From contig JAVJQW010000047.1 of assembly GCA_040218735.1 (NCBI GenBank), positions 1 through 64,000 on the forward strand: DNA of 64,000 nucleotides. The letters are read 5' to 3'. The notes beneath the pieces were generated by a model, which was not told the DNA's origin, ran no database searches, and saw nothing but the letters and a program-made list of their open reading frames with translations. How positions within the stretch are numbered: the first letter of the stretch is position 1; each line of letters begins with the position of its first letter. Positions 193 through 6,584 of this stretch are shown here, one piece after another. The translations under genes and the position numbers were made by a program. The DNA is from Deltaproteobacteria bacterium (GTDB lineage: Bacteria > Myxococcota > Kuafuiibacteriia > Kuafuiibacteriales > Kuafuiibacteriaceae).

Positions 193-1875
193 ATGGTCCC
201 ATCTATGCAGCTAGTGCATTCCATCGAGATTCGTGGTCTGCGATCGCTTCAGCAGGTGGAACTCGACGAGGTCGGGCACTTCACGTCGATCGTCGGAAAG
301 AACTCCGCGGGTAAGTCGAATGTACTCCGCGCGCTGAATCTTTTCTTCCACGGTGAAGTCGGTCCCGGTGAGCCGCTCATGTTCAGCCGGGACACGTTTC
401 GGGCGATTCCGCGAACCCGCAAGAAGAAGATGATTGAGGTAAAGGTTCGCTTCCGACTGCCGACCGCTTTCAACTTCCCCAAGCCTCTAAAGTCCAATCT
501 CGCAAAGCTAGGCAATGACTTCACAATCACGAGACGTTGGACGCTTAACAAGCAAGATCTACCAATCGACGAATTCGTGTTGGTCGGCATGACATCCGTG
601 GGCAATCAGCAGGAACTTGCTCAACAGTTTCTGAATCTTATTACGTTTCGCTACATCCCAAACCGCACGGTACCGGCACTTGTTCTGCGGGACGAAAGCA
701 GATCCCTTGCGAAGTCACTTCAGATTCGGCTCAAAGGTAAGGGCTCCGTCACCGACCTAGTTCAGGAGCTACAAACTGCTGCCGCTGCCTTCCTTCGACC
801 GGCATCCGTGTCGATGTCCGGTACGGGGGCACCACTTTCGGATCCTGCAGTTGCGGCCCCGAAGGAGCTCGGCGAACTCTTCTCCCTGGCGGGATTTCAG
901 GCGCGGGGTCGATCAGGCGACACGATTCGTGACGAGGACTGGGGATCAGGCCATCAGGCATTCTTTCTTTATCAGCTTCTCTACGCGCTGGACACACACT
1001 ACTCACGCTTCTTTGGCTGGAAACAGGCAACGATATGGGGCGTTGAGGAGCCGGAGTCAGGACTCCACCGGGAACTGGAGACGCGTCTAGCCGCGGAGCT
1101 GCGCGCGTGGACTCTCGATAAGCGTTCGAAGCTCCAGGTCCTGCAGACCACTCATTCACCTGTCTTCACCATGGCAGGCGACGCCGGCTATTGGGTTGAA
1201 CTTTCCGGGCCAAGCTCAAAGCTGACACGTAGCCCAATTCCGAGGCTCGTTCGTGACTCGGAGCTTCGCGGGGTTTCTGGATGGATACAGCCGATCCTCG
1301 CCTTCCCGACGAGTCCCGTTGTCCTTGTTGAGGGACCGATAGACGTTGACGTTCTCACCCACGTCGCTGAGACGGTCGGAAGGCCCGATATCAAGTTCCT
1401 TTGTTTGCCGCAGCTAGATCCTGCGGAGAAGGCTGGTGGAAAGGACTCGATCGTCACCTATATGAGGCGGCACGGTGGGCTTCTGGCTTCTCGCGCAGAG
1501 GGAGCGCCCTTGATCGTATTGCTCGACTGGGACGTCTCCGACCAAGAACTGGCAAAGGCACGCTCCGCATACGGTTCGAAGGGTTCGTTCGGCGTTGTCC
1601 GCCAAGACAAAACGATGTGCCACTCGCGGCTGGGCCCCAACTTTCGCGGAATCGAGCGATTCTATCCTCTTGAGGTTGTGCGCGACGCTATCTCAAGAGG
1701 TGAACTCGTGGCGGTCGACAGGCCACCATCGGAGATCTCAGTGGCGGCCGACAAGTTTACGACGGGGAAGAATGCACTGAAGACTCGTGTCTTGCAGCGA
1801 ACGTCATCGACCGGACTGGGCGCGGGATTGACCGGGCTGATAGCTCAGGTCGAAAAGGCATTGAAAGTGGTCTAA
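193..1875 (+). CDS. OLD-family-like ABC ATPase + TOPRIM nuclease (gene cassette 1, putative anti-phage)
   Basis: Walker A GKNSAGKS, GSGHQ signature, Walker B VEEPESGLH, TTHSP switch, TOPRIM LVEGPID and DWD. Stop codon lies inside the R'' box of attC2. Start uncertain (181/193/205). Confidence 0.8.
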   Translation: MVPSMQLVHSIEIRGLRSLQQVELDEVGHFTSIVGKNSAGKSNVLRALNLFFHGEVGPGEPLMFSRDTFRAIPRTRKKKMIEVKVRFRLPTAFNFPKPLKSNLAKLGNDFTITRRWTLNKQDLPIDEFVLVGMTSVGNQQELAQQFLNLITFRYIPNRTVPALVLRDESRSLAKSLQIRLKGKGSVTDLVQELQTAAAAFLRPASVSMSGTGAPLSDPAVAAPKELGELFSLAGFQARGRSGDTIRDEDWGSGHQAFFLYQLLYALDTHYSRFFGWKQATIWGVEEPESGLHRELETRLAAELRAWTLDKRSKLQVLQTTHSPVFTMAGDAGYWVELSGPSSKLTRSPIPRLVRDSELRGVSGWIQPILAFPTSPVVLVEGPIDVDVLTHVAETVGRPDIKFLCLPQLDPAEKAGGKDSIVTYMRRHGGLLASRAEGAPLIVLLDWDVSDQELAKARSAYGSKGSFGVVRQDKTMCHSRLGPNFRGIERFYPLEVVRDAISRGELVAVDRPPSEISVAADKFTTGKNALKTRVLQRTSSTGLGAGLTGLIAQVEKALKVV

Positions 1876-1933
1876 CTCGACGTTGCAGACTGACGGTCGG
1901 CTACGCCGCCGAAAGCAGAACGCCGAGTTGGAC
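1870..1933 (+). mobile_element. attC: integron attC site 2 (64 bp)
   Basis: GTCTAAC (1870-1876) ... GTTGGAC (1927-1933). ggtctaac is the exact complement of gttagacc at the 5' end of the same cassette. Confidence 0.85.
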
Positions 1934-1950
1934 CGGCAGAGGGGGATGAC

Positions 1951-2919
1951 GTGGTAGATCTTGAGAAGCTGAGTGACGAATACCGAGAACTATCGTCGGC
2001 TGCTGAGGCCTTGCGGCTTGAGGTAGTCCGGCAGCTTCAAATGGTCCTCGACAGCGCCGAGGTTTCCCCGGGCTTTCCGATTCAAAGCCGCGTCAAATCC
2101 TGGCCGTCAATCTCCGCGAAGATTGAGAGCGGAACGGTAAAGCTCAAGCGCCTTAGCGAATTACGCGACCTCGTGGGTGTTCGCGCCGTCTTCCTCTACA
2201 AGCGGGACTTGGCGAGAGCACGTACGTACATCAAGGGTGCATTCAGCGTTGAGAAGGAGATTGACACCTCCGACCGACTTCAAACGTCTACCCTTGGATA
2301 CCAGTCCATTCACCTAGTGCTGCGGATTCCAGACTCTTGGACCGACGTACCAAGCCTCACCGGCCTGGCTCGACTTCAGGTCGAGCTTCAGTTGAGGACC
2401 ATGGCTCAGCACATTTGGGCGGAGGCCTCCCGCCGGCTCCAGTACAAAGCCTCGGAGGGGGTTCCGCAGCATCTACAACGCGACATAAACCGAGTTTCAG
2501 CTGTTCTCGAACTGGTGGACCTTGAGTTTGAGCGAGTTCTGGCCGGAAGGGATGCTCATCGTTCGAAGGACCTAGTTGCGGACCCAAGACGACCAATAGA
2601 TGTGGACGTCCTCGAGACGCTGCAACAGGCCATTTGGCCGGAGGAAAACCGATCGTCGTCGGAGACCGAGATGCTCGCTGTACTTTTACAGGAGGTACGC
2701 GCCGAAGGTATCCGAACCGCCGGGGAACTAAAGGCCGTCCTTGAGATGCACAGAGATCGCGTAGTGGCCGAGGACCGCGAATACGCGGGGGAGGTCGCCG
2801 GGTACCGCGAGGTGGACGCCGATACCCGTGCTCGCGCCCGCCGCGGCGTGTACCTCACCCACGCTGGCCTAACGAGATCGGCGCTCAACCTTTACGACAA
2901 CGAGGCTTCGAATGGCTAA
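1951..2919 (+). CDS. RelA/SpoT-domain small alarmone synthetase-like protein (gene cassette 2)
   Basis: SYNTH motifs SRVKSWPSISAK, DLVGVR, GYQSIHLV, ELQLRTMAQHIWAE..LQYK. No HD hydrolase domain. Purine-rich RBS upstream. Confidence 0.85.
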   Translation: MVDLEKLSDEYRELSSAAEALRLEVVRQLQMVLDSAEVSPGFPIQSRVKSWPSISAKIESGTVKLKRLSELRDLVGVRAVFLYKRDLARARTYIKGAFSVEKEIDTSDRLQTSTLGYQSIHLVLRIPDSWTDVPSLTGLARLQVELQLRTMAQHIWAEASRRLQYKASEGVPQHLQRDINRVSAVLELVDLEFERVLAGRDAHRSKDLVADPRRPIDVDVLETLQQAIWPEENRSSSETEMLAVLLQEVRAEGIRTAGELKAVLEMHRDRVVAEDREYAGEVAGYREVDADTRARARRGVYLTHAGLTRSALNLYDNEASNG

Positions 2920-2966
2920 CCCAAGGGTGCTGCCAAATCGGCGGTCTAACTAGACAATGAAGACTG

Positions 2967-4981
2967 GTGCGCCGATGAAAACCGGTGAGAAGTAGCGAAT
3001 GAGAGAGTCGTACGGAAGCGGACGGGCGGTCCGCGTCCGGCCCCGAGTCATGCGTCCACGAGGTAACGACCTGGGCGAAGCGTTGACAGGGGTGCGTGTG
3101 GGCCTGGCTATCGAGCCACGAAATATTGTTAGTTCCGGTGCGCCGACGCAGTCAGTCTATGCGGAAGGCACAACCTCGACGCCGTCAACGCCAGGCGTCG
3201 CGGGACCGGCGGGGTCTAGGAACCAGGGCACGCACGTAGACTTCTTACACGGGAATCGGGAGATCCTCTGTTCGACCACGGCGGATGGCGTCGTGGTCCG
3301 CGTCGGGAACCCAAGTGGGGCACGCCGGCGATGACCGGGCGGAGGAAGTCGGACGGCTTCGTAGTACCGAAGAAGCGCGCGAACAACGAACGTGAGCACG
3401 GCCCCCGGGCCAGCCAGGGCTCGCTCTACACGGGCACGAAGGCGGAAACGCCTGACACCGACAAGAGCGAGCCTACCGCCGCCGGTGCCGCCGCACGGAC
3501 CGCGGAGCGCGTGGAGGGAAGGAAGCCCACCAAGGGGAACGCGGTGGAGTTGAACAGATCCCGGACGCAGCGCCGGGCTGATCTGCAAAGCAAGCTCGAT
3601 CGCGTACGTGCCGTCGCGCGACGCGACAAGGAGGAGAAGTTCACTGCGCTCTGGCACCACGTGTACGACGTCGACCGACTTCGGGAAGCGTACTTCGCGA
3701 TTCGGCGAAGCGCGGCCTCGGGGGTCGACGGCGTGACGTGGTCGGCGTACGGCCAGGACCTCGAGGCGAACCTCGCGGACTTGTCCAAACGCCTTCGACG
3801 CGGAGCGTATCGCGCTCGTCCGGTTCGGCGTGTCCACATCCCAAAGGGGAGCGGGGGCACGCGTCCCATCGGCGTCCCGGTGCTGGAGGACAAGATCGTC
3901 CAGCGCGCGACGTCGGAGGTCCTGAACGCGGTCTACGAGCAAGACTTCCTGGGTTTCTCGTACGGGTTCCGGCCTGGCCGGAAGCCGCACGACGCGCTGG
4001 ACGCGCTGTGGGTAGCGCTCCACGCGAGGAAGGTGAGCTACGTGCTCGACGCGGACATTCGTGGGTTCTTCGATGCCATCGACCACGGCTGTCTGATGCG
4101 ATTCGTCGAGCACCGGATCGGGGACGTCCGCGTGCATCGCCACATCAAGAAGTGGCTGAACGCGGGCGTATTCGAGGAAGATTATGTGAGAAGAGTGAAG
4201 GAAGGCACGCCGCAGGGAGGCTCAGTGAGCCCGCTGCTGGCGAACATCTACCTTCACTACGTGTTCGACCTTTGGATCGAGGACTGGCGTCGTCGACACG
4301 CCCGCGGTGAGGTCATCGTGGTGCGGTACGCCGACGACTTCGTCCTCGGCTTCCAGTATCGGTCGGATGCCGAGCGACTTCTTCGTGCGCTGAAGGAGCG
4401 ACTGGCGCAGTTCGCGCTGGAGCTCCACCCGGACAAGACGCGACTCATTGAGTTCGGCCGCTTCGCGGTACGGACGCGCGAGAAGCGTGGTCACGGAAAG
4501 CCGGAGACGTTCGACTTCCTGGGGTTCACACACTACTGCGGATGGACTCGCAACGGGAAATTCAACGTCAAGCGGCGCACGATTCGCGAACGCGTCCGCT
4601 CGAAACTGCGCGAGGTCAAGACGGAACTCACGCGCCGGATGCACGGGCCCGTCATCGAGATGGCCCGCTGGCTCCGGTCAGTCCTCGAAGGGCACTTCCG
4701 ATACTTCGGCGTGCCCGGTAATCAGCAAGCGATGAGTCGACTTCGGTACGAGGTGGTGCGCCTCTGGCGCCGCTGCCTCCGTCGACGAAGCCAGCGCACG
4801 CGCATGGCTTGGTCGGCGATCTGGAAGCTCGCGGATCGCTGGCTGCCCCTCCCGCGAGCCGTCCATCCCTATCCGTCGCAGAGGCTGCGCGTTGGAACCT
4901 GAGGTAGGAGCCCAGTGCGGGAAATCTGCTCGCTGGGATCTGTGCGGGGGGGCGTGGAGCGACCTACGTTCCTACCGCGAC
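2967..4981 (+). mobile_element. group II intron, full length, probably bacterial class E
   Basis: 5' GTGCG at 2967; EBS1 CAGTCT (3153-3158) complementary to exon AGACTG (2961-2966); domain V GAGCCCAGTGCGGGAAATCTGCTCGCTGGGATC at about 4908-4940; domain VI ending ...cctaccgcgAC at 4981; internal RT ORF. Confidence 0.92.
3331..4902 (+). CDS. ltrA: group II intron reverse transcriptase/maturase, no endonuclease domain
   Basis: IPKGSGGTRPIGVP, FSYGFRPGR, VLDADIRGFFD, GTPQGG, RYADDF, LHPDKTRLIEFGR, FDFLGFTH, maturase X domain. True start may be further downstream (about 3544-3583). Confidence 0.95.
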   Translation: MTGRRKSDGFVVPKKRANNEREHGPRASQGSLYTGTKAETPDTDKSEPTAAGAAARTAERVEGRKPTKGNAVELNRSRTQRRADLQSKLDRVRAVARRDKEEKFTALWHHVYDVDRLREAYFAIRRSAASGVDGVTWSAYGQDLEANLADLSKRLRRGAYRARPVRRVHIPKGSGGTRPIGVPVLEDKIVQRATSEVLNAVYEQDFLGFSYGFRPGRKPHDALDALWVALHARKVSYVLDADIRGFFDAIDHGCLMRFVEHRIGDVRVHRHIKKWLNAGVFEEDYVRRVKEGTPQGGSVSPLLANIYLHYVFDLWIEDWRRRHARGEVIVVRYADDFVLGFQYRSDAERLLRALKERLAQFALELHPDKTRLIEFGRFAVRTREKRGHGKPETFDFLGFTHYCGWTRNGKFNVKRRTIRERVRSKLREVKTELTRRMHGPVIEMARWLRSVLEGHFRYFGVPGNQQAMSRLRYEVVRLWRRCLRRRSQRTRMAWSAIWKLADRWLPLPRAVHPYPSQRLRVGT

Positions 4982-5045
4982 ACGGGGCTTCGCCCCGCAG
5001 CTTATCATCGGGTTGGACGGGCAGGCGGACAACGGGTCATCGTTC

Positions 5046-6158
5046 ATGGCTAATCTCCAAGGATACACCTTCCGCACGTTCTTCTCTTGGGCAAGCGAGC
5101 ACACCGCTACCAATACATCGATCATACGAAAGTCGATTGATCGTGCCCAGAAGAGACTCAAGGAAAGACGGAAAGTTGACTTCATTCGAGACGAGGCCAC
5201 GAGAGACCGTGCTGGCGCGGTCGATATCGTCGGCTCTCTGCTCGAGAAGATCGCGATGGCTGATGTCGTCGTCGCCGATATCACCTTCGCATCCAGAGGA
5301 CGCCCTCCAAACCCCAACGTTCTTTGGGAGCTAGGATATGCTTTCGGTCATCGGGGGCAGGATCGAATCATCACGGTATTCAATGAACACTACGGCTCAG
5401 TAAGCAGACTCCCGTTTGACATCAGAAACCTAAGGCATCTTATTTACAGAAAGTCTCGATTCGGCAGTAGAGACAAGGCTGTCGACGAGCTTGCGAATGG
5501 CCTCTATCTCGCGCTGAAGGCTGTCGTCGACAAGCGGCTTGAGAGGGAAGTGGAGGGATTTTCGAGGGATCTGGCATTGCTGCACAGCATCAAGAGCATT
5601 CCCCAGTCTCATAGATCCTTGAAGCTACTAGGTATTGAGAAGGAACTTCTGCTGAGCAGACTCGATGTGGCTCCGGAGCTCCCGGTATCTCTTACCACAG
5701 GGGCCGGCGCCCCAATGGCTCTTCTGCGTAATCTTATTGCGGCGCATGTCAACGGAGCATTCTCAGACAAGGAGGCCATGCTTCTTTCCAGTCATGCCGC
5801 CGAAACGATAGCGAGGCTGCGGCCGTATCTCCTGACTGGGCGCAGAGAGCGTGCTCTGCGCTCTCTTGAGGACGCTCAATCGATTCTCTACGGCGCGAGT
5901 GTTCTCGCCGCTCAACAAGAAACAAGGCTCGACGAGCAGTCTCTAGAAGGACTCCGGCGTCAGGCGCGGTCGTTCTCAATCTCCATTCTTGAGATCATTG
6001 GGTTGCCAACTGACTTCCTCGGGATTGATGAAGCCAATGAGCTACGGCGCTGCGCGGTCCGCCTCCTCGCTGCTAACGTGATGAGCGAAGAGGAACTACG
6101 GGCCGGCGTCTCAGAATGCATCTACGACGTAGGAATGGTGATGGAGCGCTTCTCTTGA
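5046..6158 (+). CDS. nucleoside 2-deoxyribosyltransferase/TIR-like domain protein (gene cassette 3)
   Basis: N-terminal FFSW..., ADVVVADIT, NPNVLWELGYA, LPFDIR motifs. Helical C-terminal part not recognised. Confidence 0.65.
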   Translation: MANLQGYTFRTFFSWASEHTATNTSIIRKSIDRAQKRLKERRKVDFIRDEATRDRAGAVDIVGSLLEKIAMADVVVADITFASRGRPPNPNVLWELGYAFGHRGQDRIITVFNEHYGSVSRLPFDIRNLRHLIYRKSRFGSRDKAVDELANGLYLALKAVVDKRLEREVEGFSRDLALLHSIKSIPQSHRSLKLLGIEKELLLSRLDVAPELPVSLTTGAGAPMALLRNLIAAHVNGAFSDKEAMLLSSHAAETIARLRPYLLTGRRERALRSLEDAQSILYGASVLAAQQETRLDEQSLEGLRRQARSFSISILEIIGLPTDFLGIDEANELRRCAVRLLAANVMSEEELRAGVSECIYDVGMVMERFS

Positions 6159-6168
6159 CCGGCGAGCC

Positions 6169-6217
6169 GTCCAACAGTCCGGTGAGGCTGACGCCGAGCT
6201 TACCGCAGGTGTTGGAC
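6169..6217 (+). mobile_element. attC: integron attC site 4 (very short, 49 bp)
   Basis: GTCCAAC (6169-6175) ... GTTGGAC (6211-6217); inner arms cggtgaggct / agcttaccg. ccgtccaac complements gttggacgg at the start of cassette 3. Confidence 0.7.
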
Positions 6218-6239: not shown

Positions 6240-6584
6240 TTGCAGGAGGTCGAAAACGAGATCGCTCGCGACCCGACATTCGTGGCGGTGGCGAATGGCG
6301 CAGTGGTTGGCTACGCTCAGGTTGGGGTTCAGTCTGGTGAGATTCTCGCTGTCTATGTTCGACCGAGTCATGTGCGAATGGGCGTAGGAGCCGCCGTACT
6401 GGCCGCGGCGGAGGAGTGTGCAGTGAGCTCCGGAGGAGTTTCCCTGTGGGTGGACGCGTCGCTCACAGCAGAACGGTTTTACGCGGCGCGAGGGTACAAG
6501 CGTCAGCATTCCACGTCGTTCGCTCTTGATTCCGAGGTTGAGTTGCCGTGCGTCAGGATGACTAAAACGCTGCCTTGTCGCTGA
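6240..6584 (+). CDS. GNAT acetyltransferase, apparently N-terminally truncated (last cassette)
   Basis: VYVRPSHVRMGVGAAVL acetyl-CoA motif, ASLTAERFYAARGY. Only 114 aa with a TTG start. Confidence 0.7.
   Translation: MQEVENEIARDPTFVAVANGAVVGYAQVGVQSGEILAVYVRPSHVRMGVGAAVLAAAEECAVSSGGVSLWVDASLTAERFYAARGYKRQHSTSFALDSEVELPCVRMTKTLPCR

Follow-up and report, generated by a model that had tools for sequence, protein, structure and literature searches.

Group II introns that reside in integron attC sites are known mainly from the IIC-attC lineage, of which S.ma.I2 is an example, and attC sites were thought to host essentially this one lineage. IIC-attC introns lack an endonuclease domain and interrupt cassette arrays from within attC. 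They occupy the bottom strand and run antisense to the cassettes, where they block transcription from the cassette promoter (Pc) and supply outward promoters (PMC3001079). They have a class C protein and ribozyme and, being antisense, cannot splice from the cassette transcript (PMC3001079). Here we analyze a stretch of 64,000 nucleotides (nt) from Deltaproteobacteria bacterium (GCA_040218735.1; positions 1-64,000 of JAVJQW010000047.1, contig C28), hereafter the window. It very probably carries a full-length class E intron, at 2967-4981, in the third attC site (attC3) of a chromosomal integron array, on the top strand and in the sense orientation relative to the cassettes; we infer that this intron is mobile. 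In contrast to IIC-attC introns, the window intron is class E-like, sense and in the middle of the site, and its target would be recognized through two exon-binding sites, EBS1 and EBS2. An unusual IIC intron in an attC top strand from Enterobacter cloacae (Rodriguez-Martinez et al., 2012, as cited in PMC7923331) shares the strand and the cassette-sense orientation, but it belongs to class C (PMC7923331).

Introns outside group IIC have been described in cassette arrays by Sonbol and Siam (2021; PMC7923331). UHB.I2, a full CL1/IIB1 intron, lies immediately downstream of an attC and is stated to share the orientation of the cassettes. H.ha.F1 and H.ha.F2 are class E fragments in a cluster of attC sites lacking integron-integrase (CALIN) of Halorhodospira halochloris. 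All three resemble the window intron in being non-IIC, situated in cassette arrays and without an endonuclease domain, and the authors suggested that target recognition may be aided by the attC top-strand hairpin (PMC7923331). That class E introns occur in cassette arrays is thus already published, a possibility that the original prediction for this locus had allowed for. Unlike the window intron, H.ha.F1 and H.ha.F2 are 5'-truncated and have broken reverse transcriptases (RTs), and the text of the report gives for them no 5' junction, no pairing between EBS and intron-binding site (IBS), and no exact attC position; its supplement may hold details of the fragment junctions (PMC7923331). What is new here is a complete element with exact attC junctions on both sides, a defined pairing with the L'' arm of the site, and a position conserved in a relative. 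This is the first case that we found in which the target of an attC-resident class E intron is defined exactly, and a limited literature search returned no published case closer than those fragments.

Two further systems bear on the comparison. S.me.I4 and the IIE ribozymes (PMC3753933) resemble the window intron in RT sequence (57% identity for S.me.I4), in matching the same Rfam domain 1 model, in a 5-nt loop of domain 5 (D5), in small size and in the use of both EBS1 and EBS2. They differ in that no report of an integron context was found for them, and S.me.I4 is disrupted by one in-frame TGA. RmInt1, the model for retrohoming without an endonuclease, also lacks this domain and reverse-splices into transiently single-stranded DNA at the replication fork (PMC8914252). 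It is, in contrast, a class D intron (33-34% identity, RF01999-type RNA) whose target is an insertion sequence.

A group II intron inside attC3

The source genome is an 11.6-Mb draft in 70 contigs (GTDB lineage Bacteria; Myxococcota; Kuafuiibacteriia; Kuafuiibacteriales; Kuafuiibacteriaceae). In the first 6.2 kb of the window, four cassette-like open reading frames (ORFs) lie on the + strand, each followed by an imperfect palindrome of 49-66 nt that starts with RYYYAAC and ends with GTTRRRY. The third palindrome is interrupted. The interrupting segment runs from GTGCG (2967) to CGAC (4981), in agreement with the 5' GUGYG and 3' AY ends of group II introns. Its domain 1 core (3004-3224) matches RF02005 (group-II-D1D4-6) over the whole model with 136.8 bits, compared to a gathering score of 49. 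Domains 5 and 6 (4906-4981) match RF00029 with 41.7 bits, and this match ends precisely at the proposed 3' end. D5 (4908-4941) contains the AGC triad and a 5-nt loop, GAAAU, and domain 6 contains a bulged A. Between these RNA domains, in the place of domain 4, an intact RT/maturase ORF (3331-4902, + strand) encodes 523 amino acids including the YADD motif. The protein scores 352.3 bits against TIGR04416 (cut-off 300) over profile positions 3-352 of 353, with the match ending at residue 486 of 523, and RVT_1 is the only Pfam family found, with no endonuclease domain. The ribozyme is small, with 364 nt before the ORF and 79 nt after it. Judged by these sequence features, 2967-4981 is a complete and apparently functional mobile group II intron.

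To describe the target, ten attC copies from five contigs of this genome were aligned, which defined 24 consensus base pairs, 7 of them with compensatory changes. The covariance model built from these copies, R1, detects 31 intact attCs in the genome at 32-89 bits. Detection is strand-specific, as the few opposite-strand matches all score 27 bits or less. R1 describes one attC family (effective sequence number 2.69) and is blind to an attC split by an intron; a blank result at other loci is weak evidence. Removing the intron joins 2944-2966 to 4982-5018 and, as the original prediction held, restores a 60-nt attC. In a scripted alignment to the attC family of the genome, the joined halves keep 22 of the 24 consensus pairs. 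The intron separates the L'' (5') arm of the attC stem from the terminal hairpin. The predicted intron ends, flanks, EBS1 and target hexamers could all be located in the sequence at the coordinates assigned to them.

The + strand is the attC's top strand, and the intron is therefore sense to the cassettes, as had been proposed. Three independent marks indicate this. First, the cassette ORFs of the + strand stop within or shortly before the R'' box. Second, in the consensus fold, the extrahelical stem bases (G and A) are found in the + strand on the 5' arm, which bears AAC, and in the − strand on the arm opposite AAC; the recombined bottom strand has its extrahelical bases opposite the AAC arm (Nivina et al.; PMC5027507). 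Third, the terminal loop reads TTC on the + strand, equivalent to GAA on the − strand, and GAA is the conserved bottom-strand loop in most attCs of mobile integrons (PMC5027507). The features of the array are as follows, with IBS1 and IBS2 denoting the exon segments that face EBS1 and EBS2.

78-143, + strand: attC1, intact (R1 76.0 bits), with the IBS1-equivalent hexamer AGTCTG at 95-100
181-1875, + strand: cassette ORF 1, an OLD/GajA/AriA-like AAA ATPase (Pfam AAA_15 and AAA_21; PADLOC AriA and GajA models)
1870-1933, + strand: attC2, intact and unoccupied (R1 48.6 bits), with a perfect IBS1, AGACTG|ACG, at 1887-1892
1951-2919, + strand: cassette ORF 2, a RelA/SpoT-domain protein (Pfam RelA_SpoT, E = 1.1e-15; PADLOC candidate PDC-S33)
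2944-2966, + strand: 5' half of attC3 and end of the 5' exon, with R'' GTCTAAC at 2944-2950 followed by the L'' arm; IBS2 at 2953-2959 and IBS1 at 2961-2966
2967-4981, + strand: group II intron, class E-like, 2015 nt (Rfam matches, boundary covariation)
4982-5018, + strand: 3' half of attC3 and start of the 3' exon, made up of terminal hairpin, L' arm and R' (GTTGGAC, 5012-5018)
5046-6158, + strand: cassette ORF 3, weakly TIR-like (Pfam matches below curated cut-offs; PADLOC TIR effector models, E = 4e-5)
6169-6217, + strand: attC4, short and divergent, the last of the window array (R1 32 bits), with AGGCTG at 6185-6190

The exon junction is explained by base pairing. EBS1, CAGUCU at 3153-3158, is located in the 9-nt loop of an Rfam-aligned domain 1 hairpin and is complementary at all six positions to the exon hexamer AGACTG at 2961-2966. 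We asked whether this pairing is maintained in homologous introns. Among 110 introns with a usable 5' end, the hairpin pattern is absent in 12, and the remainder represent 71 distinct combinations of EBS1 and exon; one alternative register, 2 nt upstream, was allowed for introns starting GA-AAGCG. Pairing at this loop position is 6/6 in 52 of the 71 combinations, 40 of them entirely Watson-Crick; shuffling the EBS1 partners 500 times gave 2.3 such combinations on average and 7 at most. The combinations contain 54 different EBS1 hexamers. A candidate EBS2, UAUUGUU at 3124-3130, lies in an A/U-rich internal loop upstream of the EBS1 hairpin and can form seven pairs, two of them G-U, with GACAAUG at 2953-2959. 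The family signal for EBS2/IBS2 is weaker than that for EBS1: the mean best score is 3.99 compared to 3.27 for shuffled partners (maximum 3.54, 200 shuffles), and there are 14 near-perfect matches against a shuffled mean of 3.7. Because EBS1 (6 bp) and EBS2 (7 bp) both pair with the L'' arm, the intron is predicted to read 13-14 exon bases of this arm in the fashion of IIB introns, in line with the earlier proposal that the target is recognized by sequence pairing. The L'' arm of attC3 is itself unusual: two stem-breaking bases (pairs 12-53 and 13-52) replace two G-U pairs with EBS2 by Watson-Crick pairs. Either the intron selected this variant or the arm drifted after insertion. A delta-delta' pairing beside EBS1 was considered but does not hold: almost every loop has T immediately 5' of EBS1, regardless of the first base of the 3' exon, which places EBS3 elsewhere.

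The target hexamer had been described as shared by every attC. This holds for the four sites of the window, in which the equivalent hexamers of attC1, attC2 and attC4 are each followed by ACG and lie 16-17 nt from the start of R''. It does not hold across the genome: the 31 intact attCs carry AGACTG at 7 sites, AGTCTG at 4, AGGCTG at 2 and an AGACGG-type hexamer, which mismatches EBS1, at 18. As also predicted, perfect targets elsewhere are empty; seven other attCs present a perfect IBS1 followed by A at position +1, and none is occupied.

Could the arrangement be an assembly artefact, with an intron misjoined to attC halves in a repeat-rich array of a 70-contig draft? The arrays of this genome are indeed split over several contigs (C15, of 2320 nt, and the ends of C28, C39 and C67). 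Three observations make such an error very improbable. Exact excision of 2967-4981 gives an attC in register; the end of the 5' exon is an exact complement of the intron's own EBS1 and also pairs with its EBS2, neither of which would be expected of a chimera; and the same arrangement recurs in an independent assembly, that of the relative L082 described below.

Class of the intron

The window intron was compared with group II introns of Sinorhizobium meliloti GR4, which have been listed by class and replicon, including the class E intron S.me.I4 on pRmeGR4b (PMC5894124). Reference sequences were extracted from three GR4 plasmid records, and the stated copy numbers were recovered; the records are barely annotated, and the classes were assigned by elimination. 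Two sets of hits identical in score, six and seven in number, correspond to the class D introns RmInt1 and RmInt2. One more full hit on pSymB was taken as the class C intron, and a hit on pRmeGR4b with an in-frame TGA was taken as the disrupted S.me.I4.

The window RT is 57% identical to that of S.me.I4 over 312 amino acids, compared to 33-34% for RmInt1 and RmInt2 and 36% for the class C RT. The RNA gives the same grouping. A full-length match to RF02005 is obtained for the window intron, S.me.I4 (145.4 bits) and the two attC-associated relatives L082 and L108; for the class D introns the matching model is RF01999, and for the class C intron RF02001 and RF01998 match. S.me.I4 nests inside our family sample, with 78% identity to one member (L065). 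A 5-nt D5 loop is described as an idiosyncrasy of groups IIE and IIF, the loop being otherwise a GNRA tetraloop (Nagy et al., 2013; PMC3753933). Of 74 distinct D5s in the family, 45 fold with such a loop and all 74 have AGC. Based on the RT identity to S.me.I4, the common RF02005 match and the 5-nt D5 loop, we classify the intron from its sequence as class E-like (IIB-like and endonuclease-less), with one labelled class E reference in the comparison and none for class F or for the g1-g4 groups of Toro and Martinez-Abarca (PMC3552965). This agrees with the original assignment, not class C and class E-like. Matches to sequences in the PDB are nearly equal for IIC, IIB and IIA maturases (E = 1e-35 to 1e-41) and are uninformative on class.

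The attC location, the small ribozyme and the protein without an endonuclease domain would also be expected of a misclassified member or offshoot of the IIC-attC introns. This explanation is already refuted by the RT identities and by the RNA, which matches RF02005 and not RF02001 and RF01998, and we give it virtually no weight. In addition, the window intron has an EBS2, a full 6-bp EBS1 and a 5-nt D5 loop, and its top-strand, sense, mid-site position differs from that of IIC-attC introns, which are found in the bottom strand and opposite to the genes (PMC3001079).

A search of the source genome returned one full copy of the intron and one unrelated match at 35% identity. The latter is a second group II intron (C20:286941-288293, locus L081), whose RNA matches RF02003 and part of RF02005 and whose RT clusters, on a long branch, with the class D references.

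Insertion sites of related introns

Homologues were sampled as 79 loci from species-representative genomes (from the best 80 of 165 relatives) and 80 loci from metagenomes (the best 80 of 555), and their intron ends were placed with iterated nhmmer profiles. Trees were calculated with FastTree for all rows and with IQ-TREE in quick mode (LG+G4) for 33 chosen rows, leaving out L093, a long sequence of odd composition. Searches at the level of the order (2/20 genomes) and of the phylum (13/401), the source genome counted in both, found no relative closer than L082, and a scan of viral contigs found nothing. Six closer or comparable sequences are known at the protein level: P0003, at 89% identity, and P0004-P0008, at 67-69%. 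Many homologue contigs scarcely exceed the length of the intron; many relatives, including P0003, are on contigs of about 1.9-2.4 kb. Contigs this short would fit multi-copy repeats with differing flanks. Some homologues are inserted in the RT gene of another intron, for example L139 and L125.

The nearest relative with flanks is L082, a metagenome locus whose RT is 68% identical to that of the window. It is the sister of the window intron in both trees, with a local support of 95 (FastTree) and a Shimodaira-Hasegawa approximate likelihood ratio (SH-aLRT) of 94 (IQ-TREE). The intron is likewise 2015 nt long and is located between two + strand ORFs. When its flanks are joined, they fall in register with the attC family of the window genome and form 20 of the 24 pairs. 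All L-box and terminal-hairpin pairs are kept; the four breaks are all in the R box, and R' has one extra base. The insertion point is the same as in the window: the L'' arm directly precedes the intron, and the first exon base behind it is the A in front of the terminal hairpin. The EBS sequences, in contrast, have changed together with the target: EBS1 is CCGCUG facing IBS1 CAGCGG, and EBS2 is UAUGCU facing AGCAUG, both different from those of the window and both matching their own site.

A second relative associated with an attC, L108 (59% identity), belongs to a different part of the clade. Its surroundings are a cassette array, in which two attCs follow at distances of 1 and 2 kb downstream (35.9 and 23.6 bits). 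This intron is inserted at GTTCGG|C in the R' core of an attC, and its EBS1 is complementary to the R' core. The same attC holds two top-strand group II introns, an ORF-less intron of about 630 nt (551-1180, in the terminal region) and the class E intron (1223-3148). The ORF-less intron has a D5/D6 match at 1089-1180, and its 5' end at 551 was read by eye. Taking out the two introns leaves a site that folds into a canonical attC, the same extra bases again being on the 5' arm. Outside L108, the best R1 match among the homologue loci is at L002 (21.6 bits, E = 0.007), on the opposite strand and 2.2 kb from the L002 intron.

Several results weigh against parts of our interpretation. The homologues, at 50-68% RT identity, occupy about 90 distinct insertion sites, nearly all of which are unrelated non-attC targets; in the 80 distinct sites that retain 40 nt or more on each side, the flanks are diverse, with small groups that share motifs of their own. 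Nine more well-flanked sites from the same phylum (401 genomes) are non-attC by eye and have no R1 match. A heuristic combining R''/R' boxes and folding flagged 3 of the 80 distinct sites (the window, L126 and L129) and 5 of 400 controls; it is too strict, as it missed L082 and L108, and L126 and L129 are only candidates, with long multi-hairpin structures. Any claim of a sublineage rests on two introns. The class label leans on a single reference, and the rooted FastTree tree places the long class D branch inside the family, which we read as a long-branch effect. The genome has a single copy in 11.6 Mb despite the seven other attCs with a perfect IBS1 and A. This points to low activity, to a recent arrival, to an EBS2 requirement that those sites do not satisfy, or to repeats that were collapsed. 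Finally, the GC skew of C28 (-0.006) is too weak to indicate whether the attC top strand serves as lagging-strand template.

These observations raise the question whether the attC position reflects an opportunistic or inherited insertion with no specialization for attC, the likeness between the window and L082 being due to one ancestral insertion that traveled and diverged together with its attC. The spread of non-attC sites, the 54 EBS1 hexamers among 71 combinations, which indicate easy retargeting, and the single genomic copy are all in keeping with this explanation, and an intron lodged in an attC can travel with its cassette. We nevertheless consider it less likely than not, for four reasons. 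The flanking cassette genes differ, the upstream gene encoding a RelA/SpoT protein in the window and a RE_endonuc-domain protein in L082. The two introns have different EBS1 and different EBS2 sequences, which fit their respective sites perfectly or nearly so; co-inheritance would require several paired changes in intron and exon. A third member, L108, is found in a further attC, where it is inserted at a different point and shares the site with an ORF-less group II intron. Lastly, attCs make up a minute fraction of a genome, and three attC hits in about 90 sites are far above random expectation.

The class E family as a whole retargets freely, with one sister pair at a single structural position in two versions of one attC family and a further member in a different attC segment. 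The original claim that the lineage homes to attC is partly supported. By the criterion set in the original prediction, the unrelated targets of nearly all homologues count against it; the homologous attC position of L082 and the attC location of L108 speak for it, and any specialization for attC would be limited to a small sublineage of two introns and one separate case. Whether the window intron and L082 belong to a small attC-adapted class E sublineage is, in our estimate, close to evenly balanced, with slightly less in favor than against. A more extended proposal, which we advance tentatively and with somewhat less confidence, is that an 'IIE-attC' lineage, a mirror image of IIC-attC, homes to the junction between L'' and the terminal hairpin on the top strand, retunes EBS1 and EBS2 to the attC family of each host, is expressed and spliced from cassette transcripts, and, by disabling the attC that it occupies, welds cassettes into larger mobile units that take the intron from one integron to another.

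In such a pathway, the intron would arrive by retrohoming, with a lariat-protein particle reverse-splicing into the top strand at AGACTG|A. Since the protein has no endonuclease, synthesis of the cDNA would be primed by the nascent strand at a replication fork, as for RmInt1. Endonuclease-less introns prefer the lagging-strand template as substrate. In 25 of 30 sedentary chromosomal integrons, the attC bottom strand is on the leading-strand template (Loot et al.; PMC5371416). The lagging-strand template would then contain the top strand, and sense insertion would be expected in chromosomal arrays.

Once resident, the intron would be transcribed with the cassettes and, owing to its sense orientation, could splice out and leave an intact attC in the RNA. 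It would thus remove itself from the cassette mRNA at little cost to the expression of the array. In DNA, the two halves of the attC are 2 kb apart, and the bottom-strand recombination hairpin could not fold, which would freeze or fuse the cassettes: cassettes 2 and 3 and the intron would form one unit of about 4.3 kb, from attC2 to attC4. Because the cassettes on both sides look like phage-defense genes, their fusion could alter which defense genes move together. The window intron and L082 also provide a natural intron/attC pair with which to ask if recognition depends on sequence only or also on the adjacent hairpin.

Integron and cassette context

The integron integrase gene of the genome is located at C28:134263-135204, on the same contig as the window but outside it, and its product scores 455.5 bits against TIGR02249 (cut-off 265). 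Downstream are 15 attCs that reach the contig end, with short + strand ORFs finishing at the R'' boxes. The intI ORF is upstream of this array and co-directional with it, not divergent (C28:133954-143933, locus L169). The four attCs of the window are at the opposite end of C28 in this draft assembly, and they represent either the far end of the intI integron or a separate, integrase-less cluster. Other pieces of array are found on C15 and at one end each of C39 (its start) and C67 (its end), and single or paired sites on C9 and C59. Since arrays break off at contig ends in these three places, the single integrase gene is accompanied by three or more array tails.

The attCs of the genome fall into two variants with a covarying change at the foot of the terminal hairpin, CTG/CAG at 13 sites and CGG/CCG at 18. 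The CTG/CAG variant is found in the window array and at isolated sites, and the CGG/CCG variant in most of the main array.

The cassettes flanking the intron resemble defense or toxin-type genes. In addition to the OLD/GajA/AriA-like ATPase, whose stop codon falls within R'' of attC2, the RelA/SpoT protein (PDC-S33) and the weakly TIR-like protein, a GNAT acetyltransferase is encoded at 6240-6584 of the window. The G+C content is 57-58% in the cassettes, 65% in the intron and 67% in the remainder of the window. A second R''-like heptamer, GGCTAAC, is located at 2914-2920, where it overlaps the stop codon of ORF 2, 24 nt upstream of R'' of attC3, and may be the remnant of an older site.

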